Assembly (NCBI GenBank): GCA_049665685.1
Contig: JBATGJ010000151.1
Coordinates: 1-38,740 of the forward strand
Reading direction: 5' to 3'
DNA length: 38,740 nt
Origin: Gammaproteobacteria bacterium
GTDB taxonomy: Bacteria; Pseudomonadota; Gammaproteobacteria; UBA9214
Made by a program: the position numbers and the translations under genes. Below the pieces are notes generated by a model. The model ran no database searches. It saw only the letters and a list, made by a program, of their open reading frames with translations, and had not been told where the DNA came from. The stretch's first letter is position 1; each line of letters opens with the position of its first letter. Positions 11,652-35,519 of this stretch are shown piece by piece.

Positions 11652-11655
11652 GCTG

Positions 11656-15310: not shown

Positions 15311-15360
15311 TGCAATCATAAAATCTTTCGGACGTGCTTTTTTCTGTCTAAAGAACGATT

Positions 15361-15443
15361 GTCGTCCCCGCGCAGGCGGGGATCCAGCCACAGGCAATTG
15401 CACGCTGTTCCGAAATCGATTTCCGCTTTCGCGGGAATGACGA
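15361..15443. repeat. REP/MITE-like element: inverted pair of GC-rich stem-loop units
   Basis: Unit 1 is gtcgTCCCCGCgcagGCGGGGAtccag (15361-15387). Unit 2 is in the opposite orientation, ttccgctttcgcgggaatgac (15421-15441). Both belong to the same family as the units at 35382-35519. Spurious ORFs across them translate to ...RHSRESGN.... Confidence 0.7.
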
Positions 15444-15508
15444 ATGAGAAATCGCGCCTGAAATAAACTCAAATATTTTATTAATAACAGTATCTTATAT
15501 AATATTCT

Positions 15509-16648
15509 TCAGAACCAGATTGAAACATACAGCTGCAGCACGCCGGCCGTGAAGTCGTACAACGGCTCGGTACCCGCGGGCACGCCGGTGACGCGGGCAT
15601 CGCGAAAATCATCGTAGTCGAACCAGATCAGATCATAGGCAAGATTGAGACTGCCGCGGTCGATCGAACGCCAGCCATTCTTGATGAAATCGTAGCTCAC
15701 CTTCACGCCCAGCGTATTGCTGGTGAAGTTGCTGAGCTCCTTGTCACGCGCAAGGAAGTTCTGCGCGTTGAAGAACGGAAACAGGTCGCTGTAGAAGTCT
15801 GCCGCCGTCTGCGTGTAGTGGCGCACGCTGCCTTCCAGCAGCCAGCCGCCGGCCAGCGGATGGGTATAACCGAATTCCAGCGTGTGTGCATCGATGCCCC
15901 AGGTGTCGGCAAAGAAGCGATACTCGCCCGACAGTGCCGCACGCCAGGGCAGGTAGTATTTTGAACGTAAGTTCACGGCACTGCTGGTGCGGGTGCGTGG
16001 ATATTTCTCGGGCTGTGTGGCATACCCGCCACCGGCAGTTGAATAACGCACCACGCGATAGGGATTATTCAGGAAACCTTCATCGGTGATGCCTTCATAA
16101 TTCATTTCCAGAATCATGTCCTTGGTGATCACCTGGGAGACACCAACCCGGTAGTTGTGGCGACGCACATCTTCCGAGAACGTCGGGTTGCCATTCTGAC
16201 TCACCGTGTCCCAACCATGGGCATAGCCCAGCGTAACCGTGGTCATGTTGCCGAACATGTCCATGCTCATGCCGAAGCTTGCCGTATTGGCATCGTAATC
16301 ATTTTCGGAACTGTTGGTGTAGGACAGACTCATGACCGAGTTGCCATGCAGATACTCGAAACCAGCGGAATACTCGGTGCGCTTCTCGGAATAGGGGCTG
16401 GCACCGCTTGTAATCACATCGATCGATGCGCTACTGACAGAGTCGACATAGTAGTTGCCGGTTACCGCAACGTTCTGGCCGAATTTCTTCAGCACCAGCA
16501 GCGAGGGACCGTTGATCTCGACGCCGCCACCCTCATAGGAATGATAGAGCGCATCGGCCCGGTCGTCCGGCAACACAGCAGCCCCGGCTCTCGTGCCACC
16601 CAGTAGCAGGCATAGACCTGCACAGCGGAGGATGTGCGCCAGAGTCAT
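15509..16648 (-). CDS. DUF3570-like outer-membrane beta-barrel protein
   Basis: The ORF track gives 15509..16723. I start it at Met26 (ATG 16648, MTLAHILRCAGLCLLLGG, a signal peptide), 19 nt after the upstream stop. The sequence shows alternating beta-strand patterns and ends in an aromatic C-terminus (...LYVSIWF). Confidence 0.75.
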   Translation of the reverse strand: MTLAHILRCAGLCLLLGGTRAGAAVLPDDRADALYHSYEGGGVEINGPSLLVLKKFGQNVAVTGNYYVDSVSSASIDVITSGASPYSEKRTEYSAGFEYLHGNSVMSLSYTNSSENDYDANTASFGMSMDMFGNMTTVTLGYAHGWDTVSQNGNPTFSEDVRRHNYRVGVSQVITKDMILEMNYEGITDEGFLNNPYRVVRYSTAGGGYATQPEKYPRTRTSSAVNLRSKYYLPWRAALSGEYRFFADTWGIDAHTLEFGYTHPLAGGWLLEGSVRHYTQTAADFYSDLFPFFNAQNFLARDKELSNFTSNTLGVKVSYDFIKNGWRSIDRGSLNLAYDLIWFDYDDFRDARVTGVPAGTEPLYDFTAGVLQLYVSIWF

Positions 16649-16667
16649 ATTCAGCCCGATTGACAGC

Positions 16668-16892
16668 CTAGTTACACCCACACCCACCACCGCTGCCACC
16701 CTCGGCGCCACGCGCGCCCTCACGTGCCTGGTAGACGTGATTGATATAGGCCGATGACACCGGGTCCGGGCTGAAGCTCATGATCGGGTCCGCGAGATGG
16801 GCCCGTTCATAGGGCTTCACCCACGGTTCGATGGGACTGCAACCCGTCAGCAGGGCGATGAATGGAATTATCAGCCAGCACCAGCGCATCAT
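16668..16892 (-). CDS. DUF4266-like small lipoprotein with Gly-rich ...GGGCGCN C-terminus
   Basis: 74 aa. Lipobox is FIALLTGCSP. The C-terminal tail is AEGGSGGGCGCN. It lies between the TlpA gene (3-nt gap) and DUF3570, an arrangement I recall as a conserved neighbourhood. Confidence 0.75.
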   Translation of the reverse strand: MMRWCWLIIPFIALLTGCSPIEPWVKPYERAHLADPIMSFSPDPVSSAYINHVYQAREGARGAEGGSGGGCGCN

Positions 16893-16895
16893 CGT

Positions 16896-17405
16896 TCATT
16901 CCCTAATGAGGCTGCGGACCATTTCCAGGTAGATCTCTTCCTCACCGGGTTTGTAGCCCTTGTGCAGGAAACGCATTTTGCCGTTGCGATCCACCAGCAC
17001 GGTGCTGGGCATTGCGACCACGTCATACTGCTTGCTGACAACGCTGTCGTTATCGAACAGCACCGGGAAAGTGACCGGCATCTGCTTCAGCAGCTTCTTC
17101 GCCTCGCTCGAGTCCTGCTCAACATTCACACCAAGTACCGTAAAACCGAGTGCCTTGTACTTGTTGTGCAATTCACTCAACAGCGGCATCTCCTGGCGGC
17201 ATGGACCGCACCAGGATGCCCAGAAATTGATCAGCACCACCTCACCGCGATGCTCGCTCAGTTTCAGGTTCTGGCCCATATGACTCTTTAATGTGAAATC
17301 GGGTGCCGGTGCGTCCACGACACCAGCAGCCACGCCACCAGCCAGCAGCAAGGCTGCCGCCGCCCCTATGAGATATTGCATAATTCGTGCGTGATGGTTT
17401 TGCAT
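16896..17405 (-). CDS. TlpA/ResA-family periplasmic thiol:disulfide oxidoreductase
   Basis: 169 aa with an N-terminal signal/anchor and the thioredoxin active site INFWASWCGPCRQEMP. Confidence 0.85.
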   Translation of the reverse strand: MQNHHARIMQYLIGAAAALLLAGGVAAGVVDAPAPDFTLKSHMGQNLKLSEHRGEVVLINFWASWCGPCRQEMPLLSELHNKYKALGFTVLGVNVEQDSSEAKKLLKQMPVTFPVLFDNDSVVSKQYDVVAMPSTVLVDRNGKMRFLHKGYKPGEEEIYLEMVRSLIRE

Positions 17406-17417
17406 AACACTCTCCTG

Positions 17418-18092
17418 TCAGAAAAATATCGACAACCCGGCTGTACCCTCCAGGTTGTGTGTCGTCTTGTCGCTACCCAGCAGGTCCGAATCAAAGATGT
17501 AATCCTTGAAGTCCACACGCAGTGAGACCCAGTCGTTGAGCAGGAAGCGATAGCCCACGCCCAGGTTGACCGTAAAGTGGCTGTCATTGGCGAATTCGGT
17601 GTTACCGACGCCACCAATCAGGTACAGGCCACTGTTGAACGCGTATTTATTGGCAATGAAACTTTCGCCGGGTAACAGGTTCATGCCCACCGAAATGTTG
17701 TAATAGGTGAAGTCACGCTGGTCGTCGGCCAGTATCTGTGCGCCACCACTGAGTGTTTCATAACTGGTATCACCGGCCTCCGAGGTACCAACCGCCAGTT
17801 CGGCAAAAAAGTCCTCGGTAATGTGGTAGTTGCCGCGTACGCCATAAACCACGTTGCTGCCGAAATCCTCAATGCTCAGCACGCCGACATAGGCGCCGAC
17901 CTCAAAGTCCTCGGAATCGATATCCGCCTCGGTGATGGTGCGCCGTTCGATATTCGGCTTGATGACCGGCTCGGCCTCTGTATAGACAGGTTCCTGTTCC
18001 GTTGTGCGCAGCCAGGAGCAGCCGCCCAGCAGGGCCGGCAGCGCCAGTACGCACGCTGACCTCAGAAGAAAAATGCAAATCCTGCTTTCCAT
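17418..18092 (-). CDS. Outer-membrane beta-barrel lipoprotein (unknown function)
   Basis: 224 aa. Lipobox is ALLGGCSW. Shows beta-barrel periodicity and a C-terminal ...GLSIFF. Overlaps the upstream gene by 31 nt. Confidence 0.65.
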   Translation of the reverse strand: MESRICIFLLRSACVLALPALLGGCSWLRTTEQEPVYTEAEPVIKPNIERRTITEADIDSEDFEVGAYVGVLSIEDFGSNVVYGVRGNYHITEDFFAELAVGTSEAGDTSYETLSGGAQILADDQRDFTYYNISVGMNLLPGESFIANKYAFNSGLYLIGGVGNTEFANDSHFTVNLGVGYRFLLNDWVSLRVDFKDYIFDSDLLGSDKTTHNLEGTAGLSIFF

Positions 18093-18835
18093 TCGTCTAT
18101 CTCCTGATTGTCATCCGTCGTTTGCAAGATGACATGATTCTGATATTCGGCTCTGAACACGAAGCGCCGCGTGAGATACACGCGCAGGCCGATCCCGACA
18201 TTAGTAATCTGGTCCGTACGATCCTTCTCACTCACCAGCGTGACATTCGGATCGGTATAGATCACGCCCGTCCCCAGCAGGAAAAAAGGCGATGCCCGCC
18301 ATTCCGGGAATGGCTGTGCCAGCAGATTGATACTGACGATTATTGCATCGGAGAAATCACCGAATGCCTGCGATAACTGCAACTCCGCTGACAGGTTGCG
18401 TGTCACCATGTACCCGGTATAAGCGGTGATGATGTCGGCACCCTCGAAATCACCGGCCATCACCCCGACCTCCCCACGTCGGCGTGAGAAGTCACCGAAA
18501 TCGGCCTCGGCAAACTCGGTCTTATCACCGTCCGGGGTCAGCGTCAGCTCCATCGCCGAGCGCCTTGCCCAACCTTCCTTACCCTTCGCCGTGCGCAATT
18601 TGAACCAATCCGTGCGCCGCTTGATGACCTCGACCAGCTCGCCGCGATCGACTACATGGAACACCGGGTAACCGCGGCCCGGCCCGGTATGCAGCTCGAT
18701 ATACGGCTCATTGATGCGTATCTGGAAATAACGCACCTCGGCCTGCACGGCGGTACTCGCCAGGCACTGGAGCATGCATGCCACGAAGACAGTGATGCGT
18801 ACCCAAAATGCATTGCAAACGGCATTTGTCGTCAC
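18062..18835 (-). CDS. SH3b-domain protein fused to an outer-membrane beta-barrel domain
   Basis: 257 aa with a signal peptide ending AVQA. The SH3-like segment is LHTGPGRGYPVFHVVDRGELVEVIKRRTDWFKLRTAKGKEGWA. The C-terminal barrel ends in ...AGFAFFF. Confidence 0.65.
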   Translation of the reverse strand: MTTNAVCNAFWVRITVFVACMLQCLASTAVQAEVRYFQIRINEPYIELHTGPGRGYPVFHVVDRGELVEVIKRRTDWFKLRTAKGKEGWARRSAMELTLTPDGDKTEFAEADFGDFSRRRGEVGVMAGDFEGADIITAYTGYMVTRNLSAELQLSQAFGDFSDAIIVSINLLAQPFPEWRASPFFLLGTGVIYTDPNVTLVSEKDRTDQITNVGIGLRVYLTRRFVFRAEYQNHVILQTTDDNQEIDEWKAGFAFFF

Positions 18836-18874
18836 AAATCAATCAACTTTTTAAAAGTTACGGCGCAGTTACGG

Positions 18875-21505
18875 CTACGGTACAACTGACGGATCGTTGT
18901 AATACTGCGCACCGATATCCAGCCATTCGGCCAGCAGCCGTAATTCTTCAGGAGTCAAAAATCCGGCGTGTGTGCCGCCCGCGTCAAAAGGCACGAAAAA
19001 CGTATTACTGGCCCGGGCACCGGCGGCGGTCATGGGAGGGTTAATGGGTACCGGCACCATGGTCGGCAGGCCGGTAATTGGGTCAATTGGGCCCGGCACC
19101 AGCCGGTCCTGAAGGACTCCGCCAACGAGTTCCTGTTCGTTGTCCGTGAACAGCAGCTCGCGGTAGGCCTTGAAATGGGCGGTAACAATCGGGTCGACTC
19201 CATCGGTCAGATCGATCTGACGCAGGCCGGCGGGCACCATCGTATTGTTGGCTGTCGTGTGGCAGCCAGTGCAGGTATTGGCACCCCGATCGACGCTCCA
19301 CAGCGGGTGGATATGGGTCTCGTAGTGGATCACGATGCGGCACAGGCTGGTCCATGCAGGCGGTGGTGACTGCATGCAGGCGGCCGTGTTCGGTGCCGGC
19401 GTGGTCAGGCCGGGCGGGGCATAGGTCAGCAAGAGGGGATTATCCGGTGTCCGCACTAACGGGTCGGTCCAGACATCGACATAGTTCAGATCCATGGACG
19501 GCCTCAGCTCGTTTGGATCGATACGTGTCAGTGTCTCGGCCATGGTCTCGGTGAAATTGGCAAACAATGCGGTGTTGGTATTCGGGAACAGGCCGCTTGC
19601 GGGTGCGCCGGCATAGGCCGTGCCCGGCGCTTCAGGGTGACCATGCGGGGTTCCACTGGCGTGATTATGGCAGCCGTTACAACGCACTTCCTCACCGGGC
19701 TTGAACTGCATCCAGTTCTGGTGCCGGGGGGTGATGCGCCGGCCGTCACGATCGACCACACTAATGGCCAGCGGCACATTGGCCGGCACGTAGGTGCGCA
19801 CCGAGCCATCGGGCTGGATCGGCACATAACCGACGATCTCGCGCATCAGCTGCTGGGCACTGGCGCCGAAAGCGGTGCCGGGTATCTGCTTGGTGTCATT
19901 GTCCGGCATGCCGACGCTCTTGACGATGCGCAGGAAACGGGCCGGGCGGTCATCTGCCGTAACCGTCAACCCCGGGTCGGCCATGGTGGGGATGTCCGGA
20001 ATCGCGGTCGTATATAACGGCGTGAACTCGACACCATCGACGTCATACACGCTGCGGATGTTCAGGATACCGGCGTCCTCGGAGTCTGCCGCAAGATCGA
20101 GATTAACACCCGGCACTCCGTCCGGGATAAAGTTGGGGACCGTGCGTGGGGCAACCGCAATGACGTCGGTGAACAGGACACCTTCCTGCGGCACCACGAT
20201 CGGGATCTGCGTGCTGTTGCCCATGTCATGGATATAGATGCCGTAGATCGGGTCGGCCTCTACAGCGGCCGGGTTGGCCAACCGTGCAGGGGTACAGGGT
20301 ACGATCTGGGTGTTCTCGACCAGCCGACAGGCGCTCCAGCCAACCAGCGCGCGGTTGGTGCCGTCGAGCAGTGGCCAGGCCGACATGAAACGGCCACCCG
20401 GTGAAATGGTGTTGTCGGTATGGATCACGTTGGTGGTCGCCGGTGTCTGTGCCGGACCGAACAGCACGCCGGCATTGACCGCAGTCGGGAAGGTGTTGTC
20501 GATATAATTCTGGGTATCGACCAGCACCAGGTCGCCACCACGATTGGAATTGGCGAACGGCAACATCACCGTCATCAGCCGGCCGTCCGGCATCTCGCGT
20601 GGCTGTGAAAACTGCACCGTAGCACCATTGGTGCCGGTGGCATGGCTGTGTGCGCCGTATAGCAGCTGCAGGCCTGTACCGTCCGGATTCATCTTGTACA
20701 GACTGATCTGTTCGCGCCCGCCCATGTTATCCCAGCGACTGAACACTACCTTGCCGGACTCCAGCGGATTATTCTGGCTTTCGAGCACAATCGCATCCAG
20801 GTCATGGCTCGGGTTCGATGAAATCTGTCTGATGTTACTGCCGTCACCGTTCATGATGTGCAACATCATGGCGTGCTCATTGCGATTCTCATCCAGCGCA
20901 TAAAACGGACCGGTACCCTTGCTCTCGTCGGTCAGTGTGGCGCGGAACTGGCGCTGCCGGTTGGAGGAAAAGATGATCCTGCCATCCGGCAGGTAGTGAG
21001 GTGCGACATCGTCGCCCAGCAGTGAGGTATTTGCCGTTGTCAGACGCTTGAGCGTATCGGTGGGTATGTCGTACTCGTACAGATCCCATTTGTTCTGCTG
21101 GTCACGCATGACATTCGGGATATCGTCCAGGCGCAGCGAGAACAGCAGCTTGGTCCCGTCGTAGGAAACCTCCACGTCCTTGACATCACCCATACCGCCG
21201 GTCAATGCACCGGTAATATTGCGGGTCTGCGCACTGGGCGAGGCCAGATCACGGTAGTAAAGATCACCGCCGGGCGTGTAACCCTCAATCTCACGGATAT
21301 CAGGCTGGATCACATTGTTCGCCATGTCGAATTCCAGCGGCCGCTTGACATAGGCGATACCGTAATCTTCTACCAGCGGGTCAGGATCCTGGATGCTGCC
21401 ACCACCGCCGCAGGCGACCAGCAGCAGGCCTGCAGCGATACTGCCGCATGCATGTATGAACAATCGACGGAGAAGATGGAGTGTGGAGGGTGTATTCATA
21501 TTCAT
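18875..21505 (-). CDS. Large lipoprotein with TolB/PD40-like beta-propeller region and two CXXCH heme-c motifs (HzsA-related-like)
   Basis: 876 aa. Lipobox is LLLVACGGGGS. PD40-like strands include VSYDGTKLLFS, YLPDGRIIFSSNR and LYKMNPDGTGL. The C-terminal part has RCNGCHNHASGTPHGH and NTCTGCHTT. Confidence 0.7.
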   Translation of the reverse strand: MNMNTPSTLHLLRRLFIHACGSIAAGLLLVACGGGGSIQDPDPLVEDYGIAYVKRPLEFDMANNVIQPDIREIEGYTPGGDLYYRDLASPSAQTRNITGALTGGMGDVKDVEVSYDGTKLLFSLRLDDIPNVMRDQQNKWDLYEYDIPTDTLKRLTTANTSLLGDDVAPHYLPDGRIIFSSNRQRQFRATLTDESKGTGPFYALDENRNEHAMMLHIMNGDGSNIRQISSNPSHDLDAIVLESQNNPLESGKVVFSRWDNMGGREQISLYKMNPDGTGLQLLYGAHSHATGTNGATVQFSQPREMPDGRLMTVMLPFANSNRGGDLVLVDTQNYIDNTFPTAVNAGVLFGPAQTPATTNVIHTDNTISPGGRFMSAWPLLDGTNRALVGWSACRLVENTQIVPCTPARLANPAAVEADPIYGIYIHDMGNSTQIPIVVPQEGVLFTDVIAVAPRTVPNFIPDGVPGVNLDLAADSEDAGILNIRSVYDVDGVEFTPLYTTAIPDIPTMADPGLTVTADDRPARFLRIVKSVGMPDNDTKQIPGTAFGASAQQLMREIVGYVPIQPDGSVRTYVPANVPLAISVVDRDGRRITPRHQNWMQFKPGEEVRCNGCHNHASGTPHGHPEAPGTAYAGAPASGLFPNTNTALFANFTETMAETLTRIDPNELRPSMDLNYVDVWTDPLVRTPDNPLLLTYAPPGLTTPAPNTAACMQSPPPAWTSLCRIVIHYETHIHPLWSVDRGANTCTGCHTTANNTMVPAGLRQIDLTDGVDPIVTAHFKAYRELLFTDNEQELVGGVLQDRLVPGPIDPITGLPTMVPVPINPPMTAAGARASNTFFVPFDAGGTHAGFLTPEELRLLAEWLDIGAQYYNDPSVVP

Positions 21506-21826
21506 GGGTGATCGGCTCTCCGTCTGGCAAACCTTAAGGGCATCCGTAAGTTTTTCGCATCAACCGGCCAGGCGCGTCGTGCAAACGGCTGCTCCGTTCG
21601 CCACAGGCGTCTAAATCAGTCTTACATACGGCATTTTGGGGTGATTAGAGGCAAAAAAGTGTGACCGGCATCCCGTTTTCGGGACTATGGCCTGAGTGGG
21701 GTGGTTTTGCTGGCCCGAGTGGCCAAAACGAGAACCACATCACAGAAAAACAAGCCTGCAGCCATCAGGATTTACCTACACAGGCCGAACGCTGGCAATC
21801 AAGGCAGGCATACCGGGGCGAGACGG

Positions 21827-23035
21827 ATGAAATATCAACCAAAGGCAATCGATCTGATTACACGCGGTCTGGTTCAGGGGCTGGCCACCACGCTCCTGCT
21901 GGGGCTGCTGATGTCGTTGACAGCCACGGCTGTGGCCGGTGATCTTGAGCGCCGCCAGGCCAAGCGCATCCATGACCGCATTGCCGGGGTGCCGCCATCC
22001 AATACCGTTCTCACCAATATGGAAAACGCCATCATTGGCAATAATGCGCTGGGCGCGGCCGATATGGCGATGGCCAACAGTGCCTTCTACAACGTAACGC
22101 TGAAGAATTTCGCCACACCCTGGACCAACCGCGACCAGACCGTATTCGCGCCACTGAACGATTACACGGCCACGGTCATTGGCATGATCCGCGATGATGT
22201 GCCGTTCAATGCACTCCTGTCCGCCGACCTGGTCTATACCGGCTCGGGCCCTGGCATTCCGGCCTACTCAATGACAGATAATGCGCATTACGCGGCACTG
22301 GAAAACCAGGGTGTCGACCTTATGGCCAACCTGGCGCCGGTGGCGCAATCGCAGGTTACAACACTGCTGCCCGGAGAAACGGCCGGCATTATGACTACAC
22401 GTGCCGCAGCCGAGGCCTTCTTTGTGGCCGGCACCAACCGTGCGATGTTTCGCTTCACATTGCTGAATCACCTGTGCAATGACCTGGAGCAGGTGAAAGA
22501 CACCAGTCGTCCTACCGACCGCATCCGCCAGGATATCTCGCGCAGCCCCGGTGGCGACAGCCGCATATTTCTAAACTCCTGCGTAGGCTGCCACAGCGGC
22601 ATGGATCCGATGGCCCAGGCCTTCGCTTATTACAACTTCAACGAAAACAACGGCAGCCTCGAATACACGCCCGGTATCGTACAACCCAAGTACTTTATCA
22701 ATGCAGACACCTTCAAGTACGGCTACGTGACGCCGGATGACCGCTGGGACAACTACTGGCGCAGCGGCCAGAACTCGCTACTGGGCTGGGCTACGGCCGG
22801 TGCCGGTGGCACCGGCAGCGGTAACGGCGCCAAGTCGCTTGGTGACGAGCTGGCCAACAGTCGCGCCTTCGCGTCCTGCCAGGTGAAAAAGGTATTCAAG
22901 GCCGTTTGCCTGCATGAGCCAGGCAACGCCACCGATCGCAACAAGGTCGAGACCATTACCGACAACTTCATAGCGAACAACTACAGCATGAAATCGGTGT
23001 TCGCTGAAACCGCCGTCTACTGCATGGGTAACTGA
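21827..23035 (+). CDS. Secreted monoheme-motif protein, PSCyt3/DUF1588-like (planctomycete-type cytochrome family)
   Basis: The ORF opens at 21701. I start it at the ATG at 21827 (MKYQPKAIDL..., with a signal peptide ending TAVAG). The motif NSCVGCHSGMDPMAQAFAYYNF resembles the C-x-x-C-H-x-x-x-D-P pattern of PSCyt3. Confidence 0.65.
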   Translation: MKYQPKAIDLITRGLVQGLATTLLLGLLMSLTATAVAGDLERRQAKRIHDRIAGVPPSNTVLTNMENAIIGNNALGAADMAMANSAFYNVTLKNFATPWTNRDQTVFAPLNDYTATVIGMIRDDVPFNALLSADLVYTGSGPGIPAYSMTDNAHYAALENQGVDLMANLAPVAQSQVTTLLPGETAGIMTTRAAAEAFFVAGTNRAMFRFTLLNHLCNDLEQVKDTSRPTDRIRQDISRSPGGDSRIFLNSCVGCHSGMDPMAQAFAYYNFNENNGSLEYTPGIVQPKYFINADTFKYGYVTPDDRWDNYWRSGQNSLLGWATAGAGGTGSGNGAKSLGDELANSRAFASCQVKKVFKAVCLHEPGNATDRNKVETITDNFIANNYSMKSVFAETAVYCMGN

Positions 23036-23038
23036 GGC

Positions 23039-25582
23039 ATGAAAGCATCCATACTAAAATACCTGCGTGTTCGTACCCTGCAAGTGTCGCTGATCGCGCT
23101 GCTGGGCGCTGGCCTCGCGGCCTGTGGTGGTGGTGAGAGCACCGTTCAGAACCAGAACACATCGGGCTCCGGCGCGGCAACGACCTACACCGGACCTGCG
23201 CCGGCAACTGCCGATGTACAGGCCTTCAAGCTGAATGTCTGGGACAACCTGAACCCGACCAATCGCTGTAACGACTGCCATGACGTGGGGGGTATTGCAC
23301 CGACGCCATTCGTACGCATGGATGATGTTAACCTGGCTTATGCCGCCGTGAACTCCCTGGTTGATTTGCAGACACCGGCCAATTCCGCCCTGGTGACCAA
23401 GATGACAGCCGGTAGCGGGCATAACTGCTGGCTGGGCAGTAACCAGGCCTGTGCAGACGTGATTACCGCCTACATCACCGCCTGGGCTGGTGGTGCAACG
23501 AGTGGCGGCAATGTCATCACACTGACCCCCCCGAGCCCGTTGAAGGACCCGGGCGCATTCAAGAATTTTCCGCCCAGTTCGGCGCTGTTCGCCAGTACTG
23601 TACACCCGTTGCTGGTGGCCAACTGTACGAACTGTCACGTCGACTCTGCCGCCGATGCGCAGTCGCCGTTCTTTGCCGACACTGACGCCGATTCCGCCTA
23701 TGAGGCCGCCAAGGCGAAGATGAACCTGAATGACCCGGCGGATTCGCGTTTCGTCATCCGCCTGCGCGATCAATTCCATAACTGCTGGGACCCGAACGCG
23801 ACTGGCAGCTCGGATTGCCCGACCTCGGCCACCGTGATGGAAAACGCCATCATCGCCTTCGCCAATGGCGTCCAGGCCACACCGGTCACTCACCCGGTCA
23901 CCAGCAAGGCAATGATCCTGGCGCTGGACGGCATCGTATCGAGTGGCGGCAGCCGCATCGAGGACAATGTCATCGCGAAATACGAATTCAAGACCGGCTC
24001 CGGCACGCGGGTGTTCGACACCAGCGGCGTTTCGCCTGACACGCACCTTGACCTGAGTGGTGGCTACAGCTGGGTCGGCGGCTGGGGTATCGACCTCACC
24101 AATGGCAAGGCACAGGCACTGACGGGTGACAGTGTCAAACTGTACAACATGATCACTGCAACCGGTGAGTACACCATTGAGGCGTGGGTTGCACCGGCCA
24201 ATGTGAGCCAGGACAACACGGCGCGCATTATCAGCTACTCCGCCGGTACCTCGCAGCGAAACTTCACCCTCGGTCAAAGCCTGTATAACTACGATGTCAT
24301 GCACCGCAGTACAACCACCGATCTGAACGGCGAACCCACGCTGTCGACGGCCGATGCCGATGAAGACCTGCAGGCGACGCTGCAACACGTGGTCGTCACC
24401 TACGACCCGGTCAACGGCCGCCGCATCTATGTCAATGGAACCTTCACCGACGATATCGATCCGATTGCCGGCGGCACACTGGTTGACTGGGACAACAGCT
24501 TTGCCTTCGTAATGGGCAACGAGGTCTCCAATGACCGCCCCTGGGCCGGTACGATCCGCTTCGTCGCCATCCATAACCGTGCACTGGATCAGGCGGCGAT
24601 CACCCAGAACTTCAACGTGGGCGTGGGCGAGAAATTCTTCCTGCTGTTCAACGTGGGTACGCACAGCGGCAATCCGCAGGACTACGTCCTGTTTGAGGTC
24701 AGCCAGTTCGACAGCTACAGCTACCTGTTTAACAATCCGCGCTATATCAGTCTCGACTCAAACGTAATACCGGATGGAATCGCGCTTGCCGGGATGCGTA
24801 TCGGTGTCAACGGATCCGAGGCGACGGTGGGCCAGGCCTATACGAACATCAATACCACCATCAGCAGTTCCCTGTATACGCCGGGCATGGGTCAACCGCT
24901 GTCGCCGATGGGGACAGTCATCCCGCTGCAAAACGGTGCGAGCTTCGACGAGTTTTTCCTGACCTTCGAAGTGCTTGGTGGCAGCACTCATGCGTTCAGT
25001 GAACCGCCAGTCGTAGCGCCGGCTTCACCCCCGGATTTGCCGGCGGCCCCGGTCATCGGCCTGCGCACCTTCGATGAAATCGACGCTACCATGTCCAGCA
25101 TCACTGATGTCAGCCGTGAGCAGGTCGATGTCGAAGGTGTCTACCAGACCGTGAAGCAGCAGCTGCCGACCGTCGAGAGCATCGAAGGCTTCCTGTCCGC
25201 CCACCAGATGGCCATATCGCAGATGGCGATTGAGTACTGCAGCGCCCTGGTGGACAACAACGGGCAGACCAGCCGTGACAGCTATTTCCCGAATTTCTTC
25301 CCGCCGAATGGTCAGGCACCGGCCGCTGCCGATACTGCATTCGACACGGCGGGCAAACGCGACATGATCATCATTCCGCTGATGAACAAGGTCATGAACA
25401 CGAACCTCACAGTGCAGCCTGATACGGCCGATGTGACTACTGAGCTGGACAGCCTGATCACGAAGCTGACTGCCTGTGCATCAGGCCCGGCGCCGACCTG
25501 CGCAACCACGCAGCGGACCGAACAAGTTGTCAAGTCAGTCTGTGCCGCGACACTTGGCAGTGCCGCGATGCTGATCCAATAA
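23039..25582 (+). CDS. Large lipoprotein with two PSCyt1-like CXXCH motifs and a LamG (concanavalin-A-like) domain
   Basis: 847 aa. Lipobox is GAGLAACGGGES. Heme motifs are NRCNDCHDV and VANCTNCHVD. The LamG signature is YTIEAWVAP...HVVVTYDPVNGRRIYVNGTF...FVMGNE...GTIRFVAIHNRALDQAAITQNF. Starts 3 nt after the previous stop. Confidence 0.75.
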   Translation: MKASILKYLRVRTLQVSLIALLGAGLAACGGGESTVQNQNTSGSGAATTYTGPAPATADVQAFKLNVWDNLNPTNRCNDCHDVGGIAPTPFVRMDDVNLAYAAVNSLVDLQTPANSALVTKMTAGSGHNCWLGSNQACADVITAYITAWAGGATSGGNVITLTPPSPLKDPGAFKNFPPSSALFASTVHPLLVANCTNCHVDSAADAQSPFFADTDADSAYEAAKAKMNLNDPADSRFVIRLRDQFHNCWDPNATGSSDCPTSATVMENAIIAFANGVQATPVTHPVTSKAMILALDGIVSSGGSRIEDNVIAKYEFKTGSGTRVFDTSGVSPDTHLDLSGGYSWVGGWGIDLTNGKAQALTGDSVKLYNMITATGEYTIEAWVAPANVSQDNTARIISYSAGTSQRNFTLGQSLYNYDVMHRSTTTDLNGEPTLSTADADEDLQATLQHVVVTYDPVNGRRIYVNGTFTDDIDPIAGGTLVDWDNSFAFVMGNEVSNDRPWAGTIRFVAIHNRALDQAAITQNFNVGVGEKFFLLFNVGTHSGNPQDYVLFEVSQFDSYSYLFNNPRYISLDSNVIPDGIALAGMRIGVNGSEATVGQAYTNINTTISSSLYTPGMGQPLSPMGTVIPLQNGASFDEFFLTFEVLGGSTHAFSEPPVVAPASPPDLPAAPVIGLRTFDEIDATMSSITDVSREQVDVEGVYQTVKQQLPTVESIEGFLSAHQMAISQMAIEYCSALVDNNGQTSRDSYFPNFFPPNGQAPAAADTAFDTAGKRDMIIIPLMNKVMNTNLTVQPDTADVTTELDSLITKLTACASGPAPTCATTQRTEQVVKSVCAATLGSAAMLIQ

Positions 25583-25599
25583 TTCACGAGGAAACCAAG

Positions 25600-27216
25600 A
25601 TGGCCAGAAATCGTAAATTCCGTGCCCTCAACGAGCCACTGCGTCTGAACGACCATGGACGGCCGCGGACCCGCCGTGAATTTCTGGGCCAGGGCCTGAC
25701 TGCCGGCCTGGGTCTGGTGACCGGACCGACACTGTTCAGCCTGTTCGCCAACCCGCGTGAGGCTGCCGCCGCGCTGTCCCCGGACATCGAGCTACTCAAG
25801 GCCGCCTGCGGAATCAGCACCCTGGGCTCCGGCAAGATCCCGTTTATCGCCTTCGACCTGGCCGGCGGCGCCAACATATCCGGCTCTAATGTACTGGTCG
25901 GGCAGCAGGGCGGGCAGCTGGATTTCCTCAGCACACAGGGATACAGCAAACTCGGCCTGCCGGGTGATATGACGCCGGCATCCATTGACCCGAACACGGG
26001 ACTCAGCTTTATCAACACCGATTTCGGCCTGGCCTTCCACTCGACCAGCGCCATGCTACAGGGTATTTCGGAGAAAGCAGTGGCACGGGCCGCTGAAATC
26101 AACGGCGCCATCATCCCGGCCCGCTCGGATAACGATACCGGCAACAACCCGCATAACCCGATGTACGGCCTGGCCAAGTATGTGCTGTCAGATCCGAGCA
26201 TCTCCGCCTATGGCAGCGTGGTCGATCTGATCGGTTCGCGCAGTTCGGAATCGGGCGGTAATTCGATGTCTCCGGCCATGATGGTCGATTCCGCCCTGCG
26301 GCCGACCAAGGTGGATCGACCCTCAGACGTGACCGGCATGGTCGATACCGGCGATCTGATCGGTGTACTGTCGCAGGCCGATGCAGTAGCCGTGATGGAA
26401 TCGATCGAGCGACTCAGCAAATTCAAACTGGACAAGGTGGATACCCAGGTCACGGCCGACGCCGTCATCAAGGACCTGGTTCAGTGCGGTTATGTGAAGT
26501 CTGCGGACATTGCCGATCGCTTTGGCGACCCGACCTCACTGGACCCGGCACAGGATCCGGACATTGTCGGACCGGGCGGAATTTTCACGCAGAATGAATT
26601 CGATAACGACAGCGAATTCCGCAAGACAGCCTCGGTCATGAAGATGGTGGTCAATGGCTTTGCCGGCGCCGGCACGGTTACCATGGGTGGTTACGACTAC
26701 CATACCGGCGACCGCACCACAGGCGAGGCGCGCGACCTGCGCGCCGGACGCTGCATCGGCGCCTGCCTGGAATACGCGGCCCGCGCCAACAACGGCAACG
26801 GCGTACCGCTGATGGTGTATGTCTTCAGCGACGGTTCGGTATTCAGCAACGGCAATACTGATGATAATGCCGGTGGCAAGGGTGTCTGGACCGGTGATAA
26901 CTCATCCACCGCGGCCTCGTTCTTTATGGTCTACAATCCGGGCAGTCGTCCTGTGCTACTGGGTGCCGGTGCAGCTGAACAGGCCTTGCACCAGCAGATC
27001 GGCTGGATGCGGCCTGATGCCTCGGTCGAAACCAATGCCACACCCGCCGCCCTGCAGGTCAACCTGCTGGTCGAAACGGTCATTCTTAATTACATGGCAC
27101 TGCATAATGATGGAGCAGCAAGTTTCTCCAGCATATTTCCCAACCATGGCCTTGGCAATAGTGCCATGATGGACAGCCTGACCGCCTTTCAGAGTATCGT
27201 TAACGGCTTCATCTGA
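25600..27216 (+). CDS. Tat-exported protein, DUF1501-like (sulfatase/phosphatase-fold family of unknown function)
   Basis: 538 aa. Twin-arginine motif is RTRREFLGQGLTAGLGLV. FDLAGGANISGS and MGGYDYHTGD resemble the GG..S and GGWDTH motifs I recall from DUF1501. A GAGGA RBS precedes the ATG. Confidence 0.6.
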   Translation: MARNRKFRALNEPLRLNDHGRPRTRREFLGQGLTAGLGLVTGPTLFSLFANPREAAAALSPDIELLKAACGISTLGSGKIPFIAFDLAGGANISGSNVLVGQQGGQLDFLSTQGYSKLGLPGDMTPASIDPNTGLSFINTDFGLAFHSTSAMLQGISEKAVARAAEINGAIIPARSDNDTGNNPHNPMYGLAKYVLSDPSISAYGSVVDLIGSRSSESGGNSMSPAMMVDSALRPTKVDRPSDVTGMVDTGDLIGVLSQADAVAVMESIERLSKFKLDKVDTQVTADAVIKDLVQCGYVKSADIADRFGDPTSLDPAQDPDIVGPGGIFTQNEFDNDSEFRKTASVMKMVVNGFAGAGTVTMGGYDYHTGDRTTGEARDLRAGRCIGACLEYAARANNGNGVPLMVYVFSDGSVFSNGNTDDNAGGKGVWTGDNSSTAASFFMVYNPGSRPVLLGAGAAEQALHQQIGWMRPDASVETNATPAALQVNLLVETVILNYMALHNDGAASFSSIFPNHGLGNSAMMDSLTAFQSIVNGFI

Positions 27217-27512
27217 GGCTGTCAGCTAATAATATCTGCAAGGCAGCGACCGGATGGTCGCTACAGCTTATCCTGACTGTCTGCCAACTCCTGCCCGGTC
27301 AATTAAAGAACTGCCGGTATTCGCCGATCCGCACCCTACGGCACTCTGCCAGTGGGGGCAGTCCGTGGCCCACAAGACGGCAACCGGAAGTTCAGGCAAG
27401 TATATCCATTCATTTGCAGTGAACTTCAACTGTACCTGGTACCACACCGGATGTGTACACAGGTATGGCGTCGTCATTTATCTGGCCGCTTATTCATGAA
27501 GGGAGTCATAGT

Positions 27513-28358
27513 GTGGACACAGATGGAGACGTAACAGAAAACGGGCCACTTATCGAGGGTGGCCAAAGAGCAGACAAGTGTCATGCTGACGATCTGAACG
27601 ACCGTGTTAACGAACTGAAGCATAACTCGAGCGGCGTAGAGAAATTGCGCGTCCTGATTTGTGAGGATGATGATGATTTTGCTGTGCTCGGTGAATTTCT
27701 GTTACTGACAGCCGGATTTGAGATCGAGCAGGCTGAAGATGCAGAGACTGCGCAGAAACTCATCAAAACCTGTCAATTTGACATTATGATCCTTGACCTG
27801 GGTCTGGCCGGCATAGATGGCCTGTCATTCATCCGCGAGCTGGATGAAAGCAACATAAACATTCCCGTTATTGTTATTTCAATCAATGCATCGAAGGCGC
27901 GTGCCAGCCTGCGCAATCAACCGGCCTTTATAGTCGACTGGATTGACAAACCGGTGGATCAGCAGCAACTGGTGAACAGTGTCTTGCTGGGCGTACAACC
28001 GGCAGTAGTGACCGGCCGTCGCATTCTCCACATCGAGGATGACCCGGATATTACCAGGCTCGTACAGGTGATGCTGGATGACACCTGGGAAGTAATCACT
28101 GCGGCGAGTGTATGCGAGGGACGCAGCCGGTTGGCAGATGGATACTTTGATCTTGTGCTGCTCGATATCAATCTGCCGGATGGCTCGGGTCTTGACTTGC
28201 TACCCGATATTCGAGCACTGAAATGCCCGGTCGCCGTTTTTGCCGAAAACGAACCATCCGATAAAACTCTGGATGTGTTCGATGCAACCATTGTTAAATC
28301 CAAAACCACCCGGGCAGGTCTACTCAAAACTCTGCTCGATCTGACTGAAGCAGCATGA
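27513..28358 (+). CDS. Response regulator with two tandem receiver (REC) domains and no output domain
   Basis: The ORF opens at a GTG at 27453. I prefer the in-frame GTG at 27513, which is preceded by GAAGGGAG; the ATG at 27465 is also possible. REC1 is VLICEDDDD...DIMILDLGLAGIDG...VISINASK. REC2 is ILHIEDDPD...DLVLLDINLPDGSG...IVKSK. Confidence 0.75.
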   Translation: MDTDGDVTENGPLIEGGQRADKCHADDLNDRVNELKHNSSGVEKLRVLICEDDDDFAVLGEFLLLTAGFEIEQAEDAETAQKLIKTCQFDIMILDLGLAGIDGLSFIRELDESNINIPVIVISINASKARASLRNQPAFIVDWIDKPVDQQQLVNSVLLGVQPAVVTGRRILHIEDDPDITRLVQVMLDDTWEVITAASVCEGRSRLADGYFDLVLLDINLPDGSGLDLLPDIRALKCPVAVFAENEPSDKTLDVFDATIVKSKTTRAGLLKTLLDLTEAA

Positions 28359-28390
28359 ACGGTATTGCCACTTATTAGCATATAACTGAT

Positions 28391-28780
28391 ATGAAGAGCC
28401 GCGCCAATGACTCCAGCCAATCAGGTTTACAGGCAGACCAGGAAGCACTACGTCAGCAGCTTGATGAATTGTTCAAGGGCTATATCCTTCGCTTGCCGGA
28501 AAAGCTGGAAAGTATCCGGGATATTGTCAACTCACTGCACACAGACAGAGATACCGGCAGGGTATTAAGTGAGCTGCAGACGCTGGTGCACAAGCTCGCC
28601 GGCTCGGCCGGCACCTATGGATGCCCGGATGTAGGCAGGGCAGCCCGCGACTATGAGCTGCTGGTCACCAGCCACCTAGATTCTGACACCGGCCTCGCGA
28701 CGGAAGACCACGCGCAGTTCGAGGAACGATATGCTGATCTGGCGATGGCCGTTGAGCTTGTAATCAATTCAGCATCCTGA
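28391..28780 (+). CDS. Histidine phosphotransfer (Hpt) domain protein
   Basis: 129 aa with LQTLVHKLAGSAGTYG, which matches the Hpt H-x-L-x-G-S-A-G signature. Confidence 0.75.
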   Translation: MKSRANDSSQSGLQADQEALRQQLDELFKGYILRLPEKLESIRDIVNSLHTDRDTGRVLSELQTLVHKLAGSAGTYGCPDVGRAARDYELLVTSHLDSDTGLATEDHAQFEERYADLAMAVELVINSAS

Positions 28781-28856
28781 AGCAGACCCGGTAATGACAC
28801 AGAGATTGCCTCAAGGTTGTTCCCAGTGCATACCAGTGCGTCGTATCATCCCGACC

Positions 28857-29831
28857 ATGCGCATGAAGGTTTTTCTGTTTCTGGCAGCAGTACTGGCATT
28901 ATCCCCCGTTGCAGCTGACTGGCATCGCGAAGAAGCGGCCATCATGGGAACCGCAGTTGTGGTCGAGCTGTGGACTACCGATACTGCAAAGGGCAGGGCG
29001 CTGACGCAAGCAGTGCTCGATGAGGTGCGGCGCATCGACCGCCTGATGAGTACCTACCGTCCCGACAGCGAACTGTCGCAGATCAATGCGGCTGCCGCGG
29101 AACGACCGGTTCGGGCCAGCAAGGAACTGCTGCAACTGGTCAAGCGGGCACTCGACTACTCTGTCATTACCGGCGGCGCCTTTGATATTACCTATGCCAG
29201 TGCCGGTCAGCACTATGACTTCCGTGCCGGCAAGAAGCCCGACACCGCGCAGCTTACCGAGGCCCTTCCAGCCATCGACTATCGCCATGTCCTCATCGAC
29301 GAGGCAGGGTCAACAATACACTTCCTGCACAGGGGTGTGCGGATTGATCTCGGCGGGATCGCCAAGGGCTACGCTGTCGACCGTTGCATTGCGCTATTGG
29401 CCGATGCCGGCATTACCAATGCACTGGTCAGCGCTGGTGGCGATACCCGCGTCAAGGGCAAACGCTGGAAACGCCCATGGCAGGTGGGCATCCGCGATCC
29501 ACGCAAGCAGGATGGCATTGTATCGATGATCCCGCTGGAGGACACGGCGATCTCCACCTCGGGTGACTACGAGCGCTACTTCGAGCAAGACGGGGTGCGT
29601 TATCATCACATCCTCAATCCAGGGACCGGAGACTCGGCCCGCGAAGTCCACAGTGCCAGTATCATCGGGCAATCAGCGACCGATACCGATGCGCTGTCTA
29701 CCAGCGTTTTTGTACTCGGCGTGGCCCAGGGGCTGGCGTTGATCAACCGAATACCGGACACCGAGGTCATCATCATTGATAACAACGGTTTGCTGCACTA
29801 TTCAGACGGTTTGGCGCGGGTCGGGCAATAA
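28857..29831 (+). CDS. apbE: FAD:protein FMN transferase (ApbE family), secreted
   Basis: The ORF opens at 28794. I start it at the ATG at 28857 (MRMKVFLFLAAVLALSPVAA, a signal peptide). ApbE motifs present: IMGTAVVVEL, GGIAKGYAVD, ISTSGDYERYF, HHILNPGTG. Confidence 0.85.
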   Translation: MRMKVFLFLAAVLALSPVAADWHREEAAIMGTAVVVELWTTDTAKGRALTQAVLDEVRRIDRLMSTYRPDSELSQINAAAAERPVRASKELLQLVKRALDYSVITGGAFDITYASAGQHYDFRAGKKPDTAQLTEALPAIDYRHVLIDEAGSTIHFLHRGVRIDLGGIAKGYAVDRCIALLADAGITNALVSAGGDTRVKGKRWKRPWQVGIRDPRKQDGIVSMIPLEDTAISTSGDYERYFEQDGVRYHHILNPGTGDSAREVHSASIIGQSATDTDALSTSVFVLGVAQGLALINRIPDTEVIIIDNNGLLHYSDGLARVGQ

Positions 29832-30072: not shown

Positions 30073-30618
30073 ATGTTGCAGCAAAAACTACTGGTACGCG
30101 TCGCCAGATCATTGATAGCGGGCATGTGCCTATTGATCACTACCCACGTACAGGCTGAATCCCCTGTGGATAATGCCAGCCTGGACGAAAATATCCAGAC
30201 CCTCAAGGAGGATGTGATCGCACTCAATCGCGACCTGTTCATTCTCGAGGAGGAGCTGCTTTATCCATCGAACACGCAGCTCGCCGTATTCGTGTCACTG
30301 GATGTCGGCAAGTTCTTTGCCCTCGATTCGGTGCAGCTCAAGGTCGACGACAAGGTCATGACAAACTACCTGTATACCGAGCGCGAGGTCGAGGCACTGC
30401 ACCGCGGCGGCATCCAGCGCCTTTACATGGGTAACCTGAAGGCCGGTGAACACGAGCTGGTCGCAATCTATACCGGCAAGGGGCCAAACGGCAGGGACTA
30501 CCGGCGGGGTGCGACGCATGTGCTCAACAAGACGCTGGGCGCAAAGTTCATCGAAATCAAGATCGTCGACAACCCAAGCAGCGAGCAACCCGATTTCAGC
30601 ATTAAGGAATGGGACTAA
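30073..30618 (+). CDS. Secreted protein of unknown function (first gene of the TPR/ExbBD/TonB operon)
   Basis: 181 aa. The signal peptide ends in HVQA-ES. It has a short coiled-coil-like segment (IQTLKEDVIALNRDLFILEEELL), then a beta-rich domain. I could not recognise any family. Confidence 0.6.
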   Translation: MLQQKLLVRVARSLIAGMCLLITTHVQAESPVDNASLDENIQTLKEDVIALNRDLFILEEELLYPSNTQLAVFVSLDVGKFFALDSVQLKVDDKVMTNYLYTEREVEALHRGGIQRLYMGNLKAGEHELVAIYTGKGPNGRDYRRGATHVLNKTLGAKFIEIKIVDNPSSEQPDFSIKEWD

Positions 30619-30714
30619 TCGCGGTTAATGAAATTGCGCGGCTCTCAGAAACGCAGCTGTATATTCACGCCTGCATGGCGCTCCTACGTCAAACGAATGA
30701 TTTGTAGGAGCATC

Positions 30715-35381: not shown

Positions 35382-35519
35382 GTCATTCCCGCAGCAGGGA
35401 ACCAGCCCGCTCGCGTACCACAGATCCTTCTGTAGCGTTACCCCGTTTCCGTCCAGTCGGGGTATAGCGCCACCAAGCAACATTGGCCACTGTATTCCCG
35501 CCTGCGCGGGAATGACAGG
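35382..35519. repeat. REP/MITE-like element: inverted pair of stem-loop units flanking a third hairpin
   Basis: Unit 1 is gtcaTTCCCgcagcaGGGAAccag (35382-35405). The central hairpin is TACCCCG...CGGGGTA (35439-35464). Unit 2 is reversed, with a perfect 8-bp stem: ATTCCCGCctgcGCGGGAAT (35494-35513). Same family as 15361-15443. Confidence 0.7.

Follow-up and report, generated by a model that had tools for sequence, protein, structure and literature searches.

A conserved envelope locus of uncultured Gammaproteobacteria combines flavinylation genes, haem proteins, a predicted metalloenzyme and an Agl-Glt-like motor block

We analysed a 38,740-bp contig of an NCBI metagenome-assembled genome (MAG) labelled 'Gammaproteobacteria bacterium'; this whole stretch of DNA is called the window in the following. 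From position 15509 onwards it carries a composite envelope locus, which is real, conserved in many uncultured Gammaproteobacteria and, with about 20 genes, larger than reported in the original prediction for this DNA. The latter had described 13 consecutive genes between 15509 and 29831, almost all of them coding for exported proteins. We counted 12 genes in this interval, and 10 of the 12 proteins carry a signal peptide, a lipobox or a Tat motif when the translations are judged by eye. The predicted gene coordinates and gaps were found to be correct (39, -31, 12, 3 and 19 nt on the minus strand, 3 and 17 nt on the plus strand), provided that the DUF3570 gene starts with the ATG at 16648. The end of the block, which had been placed at 29831 behind the ApbE gene, had to be shifted: the genes after ApbE are part of the unit, which thereby gains eight recognised genes and one small open reading frame (ORF) starting at 30073 and extends to the window end.

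Four modules make up this envelope system, each of which exists separately elsewhere. Module A consists of ApbE, DUF3570, DUF4266 and a TlpA-like thioredoxin. Module B is formed by an HzsA-like dihaem lipoprotein together with two small outer-membrane (OM) beta-barrels (OMPmyx and SH3OMP). Module C comprises a monohaem PSD2-like protein (cyt402), a dihaem LamG lipoprotein (LamG847) and a metalloenzyme exported by twin-arginine translocation (Tat), which is predicted to be similar to the alkaline phosphatase (AP) superfamily and is called the Tat protein here. Module D is a unit of the Agl-Glt 'core-complex' type with three tetratricopeptide repeat (TPR) proteins, one ExbB, two ExbD, a TonB-like protein and two small proteins. 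Nine genes constitute the core of the locus. They are arranged in two divergent arms, with DUF3570, DUF4266, TlpA, the two OM barrels and the HzsA-like gene in this order on one side and cyt402, LamG847 and the Tat gene on the other (Table 1). Within the intergenic region between the arms no Rfam RNA family was detected, and promoter-like sites did not exceed chance. Terminator-like sites, too, stayed within the expectation from shuffled sequence.

Table 1. Features of the locus with their positions in the window and the evidence for each assignment
Feature	Position	Strand	Evidence
DUF3570 protein, 379 aa	15509..16648	-	PF12094 1.5e-46; predicted OM barrel
DUF4266 lipoprotein, 74 aa	16668..16892	-	PF14086 5.8e-23
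Exported TlpA/ResA-like thioredoxin-fold protein, WCGPC	16896..17405	-	AhpC-TSA, Redoxin, Thioredoxin_8 matches
OMPmyx: small OM beta-barrel lipoprotein, OMP_myx_plus	17418..18092	-	TIGR04565 7e-51
SH3OMP: SH3_3 + small OM beta-barrel	18062..18835	-	SH3_3 3.5e-10, OMP_b-brl 4.7e-7
HzsA-like lipoprotein, 876 aa	18875..21505	-	PF18582 (HZS_alpha middle domain) 3.6e-14
Intergenic region separating the divergent arms	21506..21826	.	coordinates
cyt402: exported monohaem protein, ~402 aa, CVGCH	21827..23035	+	weak PSCyt3/PSD2-like similarity
LamG847: 847-aa lipoprotein, two CXXCH...HNCW modules, LamG/ConA-like lectin domain, C-terminal domain	23039..25582	+	Laminin_G_3 1.6e-19
Tat-exported 538-aa protein, family without Pfam model	25600..27216	+	AF2 model, Foldseek
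REC-REC response-regulator protein, lineage-specific accessory	27453..28358	+	Response_reg x2
Hpt protein, lineage-specific accessory	28391..28780	+	Hpt 5.4e-7
Exported ApbE FAD:protein FMN transferase	28794..29831	+	PF02424 3.5e-85
Exported 181-aa protein, always directly upstream of TPR block	30073..30618	+	synteny; without family
TPR645: 645-aa TPR protein, GltC-like position	30628..32565	+	TPR matches
TPR933: 933-aa TPR protein, YbgF-like repeats, GltD-like position	32562..35363	+	TPR + YbgF matches
212-aa TPR lipoprotein, lipobox LTGC, GltE-like position	35512..36150	+	aligns to L086 207-aa protein
Small exported protein; 127 aa as window ORF, true start probably later	36147..36530	+	85% identity to L086 94-aa gene
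MotA/TolQ/ExbB-family proton channel, AglR-like position	36645..37298	+	PF01618 1.9e-29
ExbD/TolR-family protein, AglQ/S-like position	37295..37813	+	PF02472 3.7e-16
Second ExbD/TolR-family protein	37810..38316	+	PF02472 1.9e-17
TonB-like bitopic protein N-terminus, GltG-like position, cut by window end	38316..38740	+	translation; L086 homologue

The conservation of the locus was assessed with an alignment of HzsA-like homologues, which was used to scan one genome per species for 185,579 species. HzsA-like homologues number more than 3,600; the species scan returned at least 572 relatives of the protein, from which the best 80 loci were taken with 10-kb flanks. Each window protein was compared with these loci by tblastn, and the counts given below for 47 loci refer to those with at least 9 kb on both sides. 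All 80 loci come from MAGs. Going by their labels, 76 of these belong to the Gammaproteobacteria, two are given no finer name than Pseudomonadota, and two (L004 and L005) bear the label Halobacteria archaeon. Lineages named in the labels are Ectothiorhodospiraceae, Chromatiaceae, Steroidobacteraceae, Nevskiaceae, Thiotrichales, Thiogranum, Thiohalobacter and others.

SH3OMP, cyt402 and LamG847 were each found in all 47 loci, while DUF3570, DUF4266, TlpA, OMPmyx and the Tat protein were each found in 46. Gene order and divergent orientation of the core stayed constant at an identity of the HzsA-like proteins of only 47–84%. A chance juxtaposition, for which the genes should never be syntenic in other genomes, thus fails as an explanation, since the nine core genes are co-linear in 46–47 of 47 well-flanked species-level genomes from several gammaproteobacterial orders. 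ApbE was present within 10 kb in 35 of the 47 loci, at either end of the core, and the 181-aa gene and TPR645 were each present in 39. Both ApbE and the 181-aa/TPR block are positioned either after the Tat gene or after DUF3570. The block has moved yet remained attached to the core, which argues for selection on the linkage and not for inertia. Genes of the outer flanks were rarely kept (S33 hydrolase in 7/47 loci; upstream cytochrome-TPR, FG-GAP and TPR genes in 5–6/47).

ORF calling and clustering on the loci revealed no further conserved family except a second TlpA in about nine loci, and otherwise provided mostly antisense shadow ORFs of the GC-rich DNA. In L038, L041, L042, L044, L058, L061, L063, L067 and L079 this additional gene for a TlpA-like thioredoxin separates the Tat gene from the 181-aa/TPR block. 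An exception to the synteny is L012 (CP070821.1, a complete MAG chromosome, 5778–14220), where the HzsA-like gene and cyt402 are present and LamG847 is truncated. In this case no Tat gene or DUF3570 set was found within 10 kb, and the SH3OMP N-terminus is located inside a 565-aa ORF. Overall, the genes very probably form one selected functional unit. Given that at least two of the modules are also found alone elsewhere (see below), the locus is a clade-wide composite.

One proposed component had to be removed from the system. The REC-REC and Hpt genes had been taken as a private phosphorelay of the locus. Their domains were confirmed, but the gene pair occurs in none of the 80 loci and was encountered in a single closest metagenomic relative of 89% identity (L081). 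In addition, the GC content of this region falls to 0.51–0.54 compared with about 0.59 elsewhere. For these reasons the two genes represent an accessory of a sub-lineage, and the phosphorelay was rejected as a system component. In two loci of 83–84% identity (L002 and L006) ApbE follows directly after the Tat gene.

Module A belongs to a type of gene cluster that has been described by Méheust et al. (2021, eLife, PMC8238504). These authors listed clusters of ApbE, DUF3570, DUF4266 and thioredoxin-like genes, 227 with and 316 without DsbD, and left their function 'uncertain'. Experimentally, the DUF3570 protein of Chlorobium luteolum was found to be flavinylated by its own ApbE at two motifs; DUF3570 was insoluble when made in E. 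coli and is apparently embedded in the OM. The same study pointed out the CXC motif of DUF4266 and recorded the iron transporter VIT1 in 25 DUF3570 clusters. In the window the domains of all four families were confirmed by Pfam (for DUF3570 with 159.5 bits at a cutoff of 25), such that the predicted gene set stands, while its description as unrecognised does not, since it is a published flavinylation cluster.

The details of the proteins are in line with this assignment. ApbE carries a signal peptide for export. The C-terminal GGGCGCN of DUF4266 with its CXC motif is invariant in the orthologues, as is the CxxC in WCGPC of the TlpA-like protein, whose scores for ResA and TlpA stayed under the equivalog cutoffs. 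The DUF3570 protein of the window contains the tandem candidate flavinylation motif DSVSSAS-IDVITSGAS, and in its orthologues the tandem YYxDx[VI][ST]SAS-IDVxTx[AG]SPY is near-invariant (65–66 of 67). All four families, the CXC of DUF4266, the thioredoxin CxxC and the exported ApbE are thus shared with the published clusters, and the two adjacent serine motifs are candidates for the ApbE-substrate type. The present locus differs from these in that no DsbD is found nearby and that most orthologues carry SSAS / T[TQS][AG]S instead of the strict [S/T]GA[S/T]. Furthermore, the module is set here between the HzsA-like/OM-barrel genes and the motor block, and such partners are without mention in the text or supplements of PMC8238504; in particular, HZS_alpha is not mentioned in the supplements. 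We assign the locus to a known kind, the flavinylation-associated extracytosolic redox cluster, here with new partners. The same four genes of module A stand alone on a Hymenobacter plasmid; a tblastn search of plasmids with DUF3570 returned two Hymenobacter plasmids.

DUF3570, OMPmyx and SH3OMP end with IWF, IFF and FFF, respectively, which supports the aromatic ends predicted for three barrels. The barrels are not consecutive as had been stated, since the TlpA and DUF4266 genes lie between DUF3570 and the other two. OMPmyx scored 172 bits with TIGR04565 at a cutoff of 60. In Myxococcus the paralogous barrels GltA and GltB bind the TPR protein GltC according to the literature, and the adjacent small barrels of module B are reminiscent of this pair.

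The third protein of module B, the HzsA-like lipoprotein, has a TolB/PD40-like N-terminal region, a CNGCH motif (residues 609–613) within the HZS_alpha middle domain and a CTGCH motif (745–749) within the C-terminal domain. Both CXXCH motifs are invariant in the homologue alignment. A match to HzsA in the PDB (5c2v_A; E-value 2.2e-6, 29 bits) spans the middle and the C-terminal haem domains, and the NCBIfam model hydrazine_alpha (NF052339) reached 44.8 bits at a cutoff of 800. The protein thus shares with HzsA the three-part build of a propeller-like N-terminus, a middle domain with haem 1 and a C-terminal haem 2, including both CXXCH motifs. It differs by the very low similarity, its nature as a lipoprotein, the lack of HzsB and HzsC, the non-anammox host and the other gene context. 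Neither cyt402 nor LamG847 had any PDB sequence match (E <= 1), and no HzsB or HzsC domain is present in the window.

When plasmids were searched by tblastn with the HzsA-like protein, only distant SUMF1-annotated proteins of Bacteroidota were obtained. Plasmid pAT2 of Aureibacter tunicatorum (L087, 6735–10751) encodes a 1,338-aa protein annotated as SUMF1/EgtB/PvdO, a region of which is 22% identical to the propeller and middle domain of the HzsA-like protein; a c-type cytochrome gene is located near it. This hints at a combination of HZS_alpha-like modules with FGE-type domains in Bacteroidota.

With respect to haem binding, the original prediction had counted four proteins with CXXCH motifs. 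We found three with five motifs in total: two in the HzsA-like protein, one in cyt402 and two in LamG847, while the Tat protein has none. The motif of cyt402 is kept in 70 of 70 orthologues and the two motifs of LamG847 in 66 of 68. The similarity of cyt402 to PSCyt proteins, which had also been proposed, goes back to scores below threshold (PSD2: E-value 0.003, 17.7 bits at a cutoff of 25.8; PSCyt3: 0.13, 13 bits at 27). Searches of Pfam, NCBIfam and the PDB by sequence and profile with the Tat protein, cyt402, LamG847 and the 181-aa protein provided nothing above threshold except Laminin_G_3 for LamG847.

The Tat protein is the most conserved gene product of the locus, with at least 69% identity for its best 120 matches, and its family comprises 1,476 clusters at 50% identity. 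It had been considered a Tat-exported, DUF1501-like protein. The export motif is present, but searches of Pfam, NCBIfam and the PDB, also with profiles, gave no match at all, be it to DUF1501, to DUF1552 or to any other family, and this held for the Tat protein as well as for 49 diverse members of its family. An AlphaFold2 (AF2) model based on a deep alignment had a pLDDT of 85 and a pTM of 0.84, compared with a pLDDT of 48 for a shallow alignment (>=71% identity). In a Foldseek search with this model no strong PDB match was obtained, and 50 of the 50 listed top matches are members of the AP superfamily (E-values 0.011–0.2), including cofactor-independent phosphoglycerate mutase, sulfatases, alkaline phosphatases, MCR-1 and NPP. 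Invariant residues in the family are RR, GG89-90, D179, G-x-D-Y-H 364–368 (with D366 and H368), D-G 411–412 and D433, which are compatible with a metal site. The model thus predicts a divergent AP-superfamily-like metalloenzyme with weak resemblance to its known relatives, and this similarity in fold is all that speaks for the DUF1501-like label. In some NCBI MAG records Tat orthologues (P0177, P0215 and P0223) carry the name 'general secretion pathway protein GspF'; searches provided no support for this name, which looks like an annotation error.

More distant relatives allow the history of module C to be followed. At 31–37% identity the neighbours of the Tat gene encode a cyt402 homologue and two small lipoproteins, the latter being counterparts of the C-terminal and the haem-bearing portion of LamG847. 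In locus L084 (7333–12106, Tat relative 36–37% identical) lipoproteins of 235 and 290 aa flank the Tat gene in place of LamG847, and a cyt402 homologue of 42–51% identity adjoins it. Since these two proteins are separate there, LamG847 is a gene fusion that also gained the LamG insertion. Among the called neighbours of the distant Tat relatives no Pfam match to DUF3570, ApbE or HZS_alpha was found, and when six gene products flanking the Tat gene in L084 were compared by blastp with the full set of window proteins, none of them matched module A, B or D significantly. Being found alone in distant relatives, module C is an old, autonomous unit.

A related arrangement is known from planctomycetes, in which genes for PSCyt/PSD proteins of unknown function form pairs with those for DUF1501 or DUF1552 (He et al. 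2017, PMC5615132). Module C resembles these pairs in having a CXXCH protein with PSCyt3/PSD2-like C-terminal similarity beside a Tat-signal protein, in the accessory domain of carbohydrate-binding type (LamG) and in its recurrence as an autonomous gene set. It differs by the sub-threshold Pfam scores, by a Tat partner that matches neither DUF1501 nor DUF1552, by the gammaproteobacterial host and by a cytochrome component that is split or fused differently depending on the lineage.

Module D was compared with the Agl-Glt 'core complex' defined by Luciano et al. (2011, PLoS Genet, PMC3169522). This complex consists of gltC, gltD, gltE, gltG, aglR, aglQ, aglS and one extra gene, which are clustered in several Gammaproteobacteria with unknown function. 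In Thioalkalivibrio the genes Tgr7_0536–0543 encode proteins of 535, 170, 168 and 222 aa and, after Tgr7_0540, of 190, 922 and 620 aa (Table S3, PMC3169522); read from Tgr7_0543 to Tgr7_0536 they were assigned to GltC, D, E, AglR, Q, S and GltG. A second published example has TPR proteins of 640 aa (TERTU_3747), 964 aa (TERTU_3746) and 225 aa (PMC3169522). The gene set of the core complex is matched by module D with three exported TPR proteins, one ExbB, two ExbD and a TonB-like protein. Comparing the window with the complete related locus L086, the products are in order 181, 645/622, 933/881, 212/207, 94, 217/216, 172 and 168/166 aa, followed by the TonB-like protein (315 aa in L086). Order and sizes agree with the core complex, i.e. 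a TPR protein of ~620 aa, one of ~920 aa, a TPR lipoprotein of ~200 aa, a small gene, one TolQ-like, two TolR-like and one TonB-like protein, with an extra gene. For TPR933 the homologues range from 881 to 941 aa. The TonB-like protein of the window contains a transmembrane helix and the Pro/Lys-rich linker PPPPPPPPKVEVKKPKP, and is 60% identical to the 315-aa protein of L086, which has a weak TonB_C match. For the TPR lipoprotein, the mechanically called 334-aa ORF (35146–36150, +) overlaps the preceding gene by 218 nt, and its start was moved to 35512 based on the alignment with L086. No Pfam or NCBIfam match was obtained for the 181-aa protein.

No cultured organism such as Thioalkalivibrio was among the homologues found with TPR933, for which reason module D could not be tied to the genes of Luciano et al. 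by sequence; a plasmid search by tblastn with the same protein returned nothing. Its membership in the core-complex family is thus supported by the architecture and not proven by sequence. In difference to the described clusters, the block is connected here to redox and enzyme modules and to two OMP_myx_plus barrels, which were not reported for Gammaproteobacteria in PMC3169522.

Further genes are found upstream of the locus. An EncFtn-like gene (15038–15310, +, within the ORF 14855–15310; PF22277, 1.6e-44) lies between an S33 hydrolase and DUF3570, and L081 has one at the same position. The 124-aa ORF on the opposite strand (15098–15472, -) is probably its antisense shadow. Between 6874 and 13326 (+) follow genes for a pentahaem cytochrome with TPR (953 aa, 5 CXXCH), an FG-GAP/ASPIC-UnbV protein (620 aa) and a TPR protein (556 aa). 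These are probably a separate unit, as they lie beside the cluster in only 5–6 of 47 loci. Unrelated to the present finding are the genes at 1588–6655 (-) for an RnfB-like Fe-S protein, two subunits of an opine/sarcosine-oxidase-type FAD/[2Fe-2S] oxidoreductase and an ornithine cyclodeaminase.

Profile searches and synteny agree with the original view of a composite, redox-flavoured envelope locus that matches no characterised pathway. A clade-wide coupling of all four modules was not encountered in the searchable literature; taken singly, each module is known as an uncharacterised type, and module A has biochemical support. The best-supported explanation is a single envelope system, in which a relay from thiol to flavin to haem together with a metalloenzyme is organised at the OM by a proton-driven motor. 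We put this forward as a tentative model, with a probability somewhat short of even. The gene content, the conservation, the autonomy of the modules, the fold class predicted for the Tat protein and the order and size match of module D were computed here, while the flavinylation of DUF3570 and the interactions within GltABC and AglRQS are taken from the literature. The electron route and its direction, the physical coupling of the modules and the substrate are what we infer. In this model a thiol relay would carry reducing equivalents into the periplasm, from a DsbD/CcdA-type protein encoded elsewhere to TlpA and further to the CXC of DUF4266. The electrons would then pass to flavin mononucleotide (FMN), covalently attached by ApbE to the tandem serine motifs of the DUF3570 barrel, and from there to the c-haems of the OM-tethered lipoproteins, with the HzsA-like protein providing the catalytic haem. 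Binding and processing of the substrate may fall to the Tat metalloenzyme together with the LamG domain. The TPR scaffold, the paired small barrels (compare GltC with GltA/B) and the ExbB/ExbD/TonB-like motor would hold or energise the complex at the OM.

Several observations weigh against such a single system. The strict motif [S/T]GA[S/T] is found in only 11 of 67 DUF3570 orthologues and once in the window protein, and 12 of 47 loci have no ApbE within 10 kb. A gene for DsbD or CcdA is neither present in the window nor conserved in the loci, for which reason the electron source had to be assumed. With one to two haems per haem protein, a long haem wire is not evident. The fold matches of the Tat protein are weak (E >= 0.011, TM 0.14–0.25), and the sole sequence link of module D to Glt of Myxococcus is GltE (NF033758; 7e-9, 35 bits at a cutoff of 225). 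There is no cultured carrier among the matches, and all proteins of the locus are known from sequence alone. Finally, the modules function apart in other lineages, such that co-location could mean co-regulation and not a complex.

The last point leads to a first alternative, namely that the four modules are functionally independent neighbours. In this case, self-sufficient modules would have become adjacent in an ancestral gammaproteobacterium and would have been kept together by vertical inheritance or shared regulation without a common task. Module A alone on the Hymenobacter plasmid, module C alone in three distant relatives, the description of the Agl-Glt core complex as a self-contained cluster in other Gammaproteobacteria and L012, where the HzsA-like, cyt402 and LamG genes occur but the others are missing, are all in agreement with this idea. 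Mere inheritance is, however, difficult to reconcile with a linkage in 39–47 of 47 genomes at 47–84% identity, while the flanks have turned over (5–7/47), and with the ApbE/TPR/motor block having switched ends yet remained attached. The small intergenic gaps and the same-strand runs from core to motor genes likewise speak for a connection, and we consider independent neighbours unlikely.

A second alternative is an OM electron conduit, in which DUF3570 in its flavinylated form would serve as a flavin 'porin' across the OM and trade electrons with the haem lipoproteins during iron/manganese or other extracellular electron transfer. Such a role would fit to a flavinylated and apparently OM-embedded DUF3570, to the aromatic C-terminus of the window protein, to VIT1 in the 25 published clusters and to the presence of a TonB-like motor. 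The EncFtn-like gene abutting DUF3570 in the window and in L081, and the pentahaem cytochrome-TPR gene near the locus in the window and 5 of 47 loci, would also suit an iron-related function, but these genes are not conserved across the clade. With the porin-cytochrome conduits MtrAB/PioAB the locus has in common that an OM barrel gene lies beside periplasmic/OM redox genes and that a trans-envelope redox role is conceivable. In contrast to these, a decahaem partner (~10 haems) or a porin-cytochrome pair is missing, the barrel cofactor would here be covalent FMN, and no sequence similarity was found. A TonB-dependent receptor is absent as well. We give an OM conduit of this kind only a small chance, and a conduit of the Mtr type was rejected, as there is no multihaem partner and each haem protein of the cluster has only 1–2 CXXCH.

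Alternatively, the locus may encode a Glt/Nfs-like machine for surface transport or assembly, where the motor would work with the TPR proteins and the barrel pair to transport or build a polymer or adhesin of the cell surface, comparable to gliding and spore coat formation in Myxococcus, and the LamG, AP-like and redox proteins would be accessories that modify the cargo. The order and sizes in module D, the neighbouring small barrels of OMP_myx_plus type, which parallel the GltC-binding pair GltA/GltB, and the LamG lectin and SH3 domains with their suggested glycan or cell-wall binding favour this view. However, according to Luciano et al. the core does not by itself suffice for motility, and homologues of gltA/B occur in Myxococcales and Bdellovibrionales only (PMC3169522), polysaccharide synthesis or export genes are not conserved in the loci, and the sequence similarity to Glt is sub-threshold, which makes such a machine rather improbable. 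Nitrogen chemistry like that of hydrazine synthase, with the HzsA-like protein as the catalyst of an N-N or N-oxide reaction (hydroxylamine, NO, hydrazine) that would draw on electrons from flavin and haem, is very unlikely: although HzsA can be aligned with the HZS_alpha middle domain and with both haem domains, and Hzs-like enzymes have been proposed as a wider family acting on alternative substrates (PMC10732223), other anammox genes are absent from the window, and a hydrazine synthase proper was rejected in view of the missing HzsB/C genes and scores far below the cutoffs.

Returning to the single envelope system, one may extend it by the idea that an Agl-Glt-type core complex organises or energises an OM redox complex around flavinylated DUF3570 and HzsA-like/PSCyt-like haem lipoproteins. 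The locus would then encode a motor-coupled, flavin-based trans-envelope redox machine of a new class, and this might represent an ancestral role of the myxobacterial gliding machinery. We regard this as a speculative extension with a low probability. Should the modules merely be neighbours, the value of the present work would lie in the well-delimited annotation of a conserved gene neighbourhood.

The locus links three published but uncharacterised systems in hundreds of uncultured Gammaproteobacteria from sediment and soil, namely the DUF3570 module, the Agl-Glt core complex and the PSCyt-like cytochrome/Tat unit, and joins them with an HzsA-like haem protein. For the large Tat family, which is without a Pfam model, the predicted AP-like structure constitutes a first, model-based fold assignment. 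The linkage supplies each of these systems with candidate partners, among them partners downstream of flavinylated DUF3570, and suggests a candidate role for the gammaproteobacterial Glt core.

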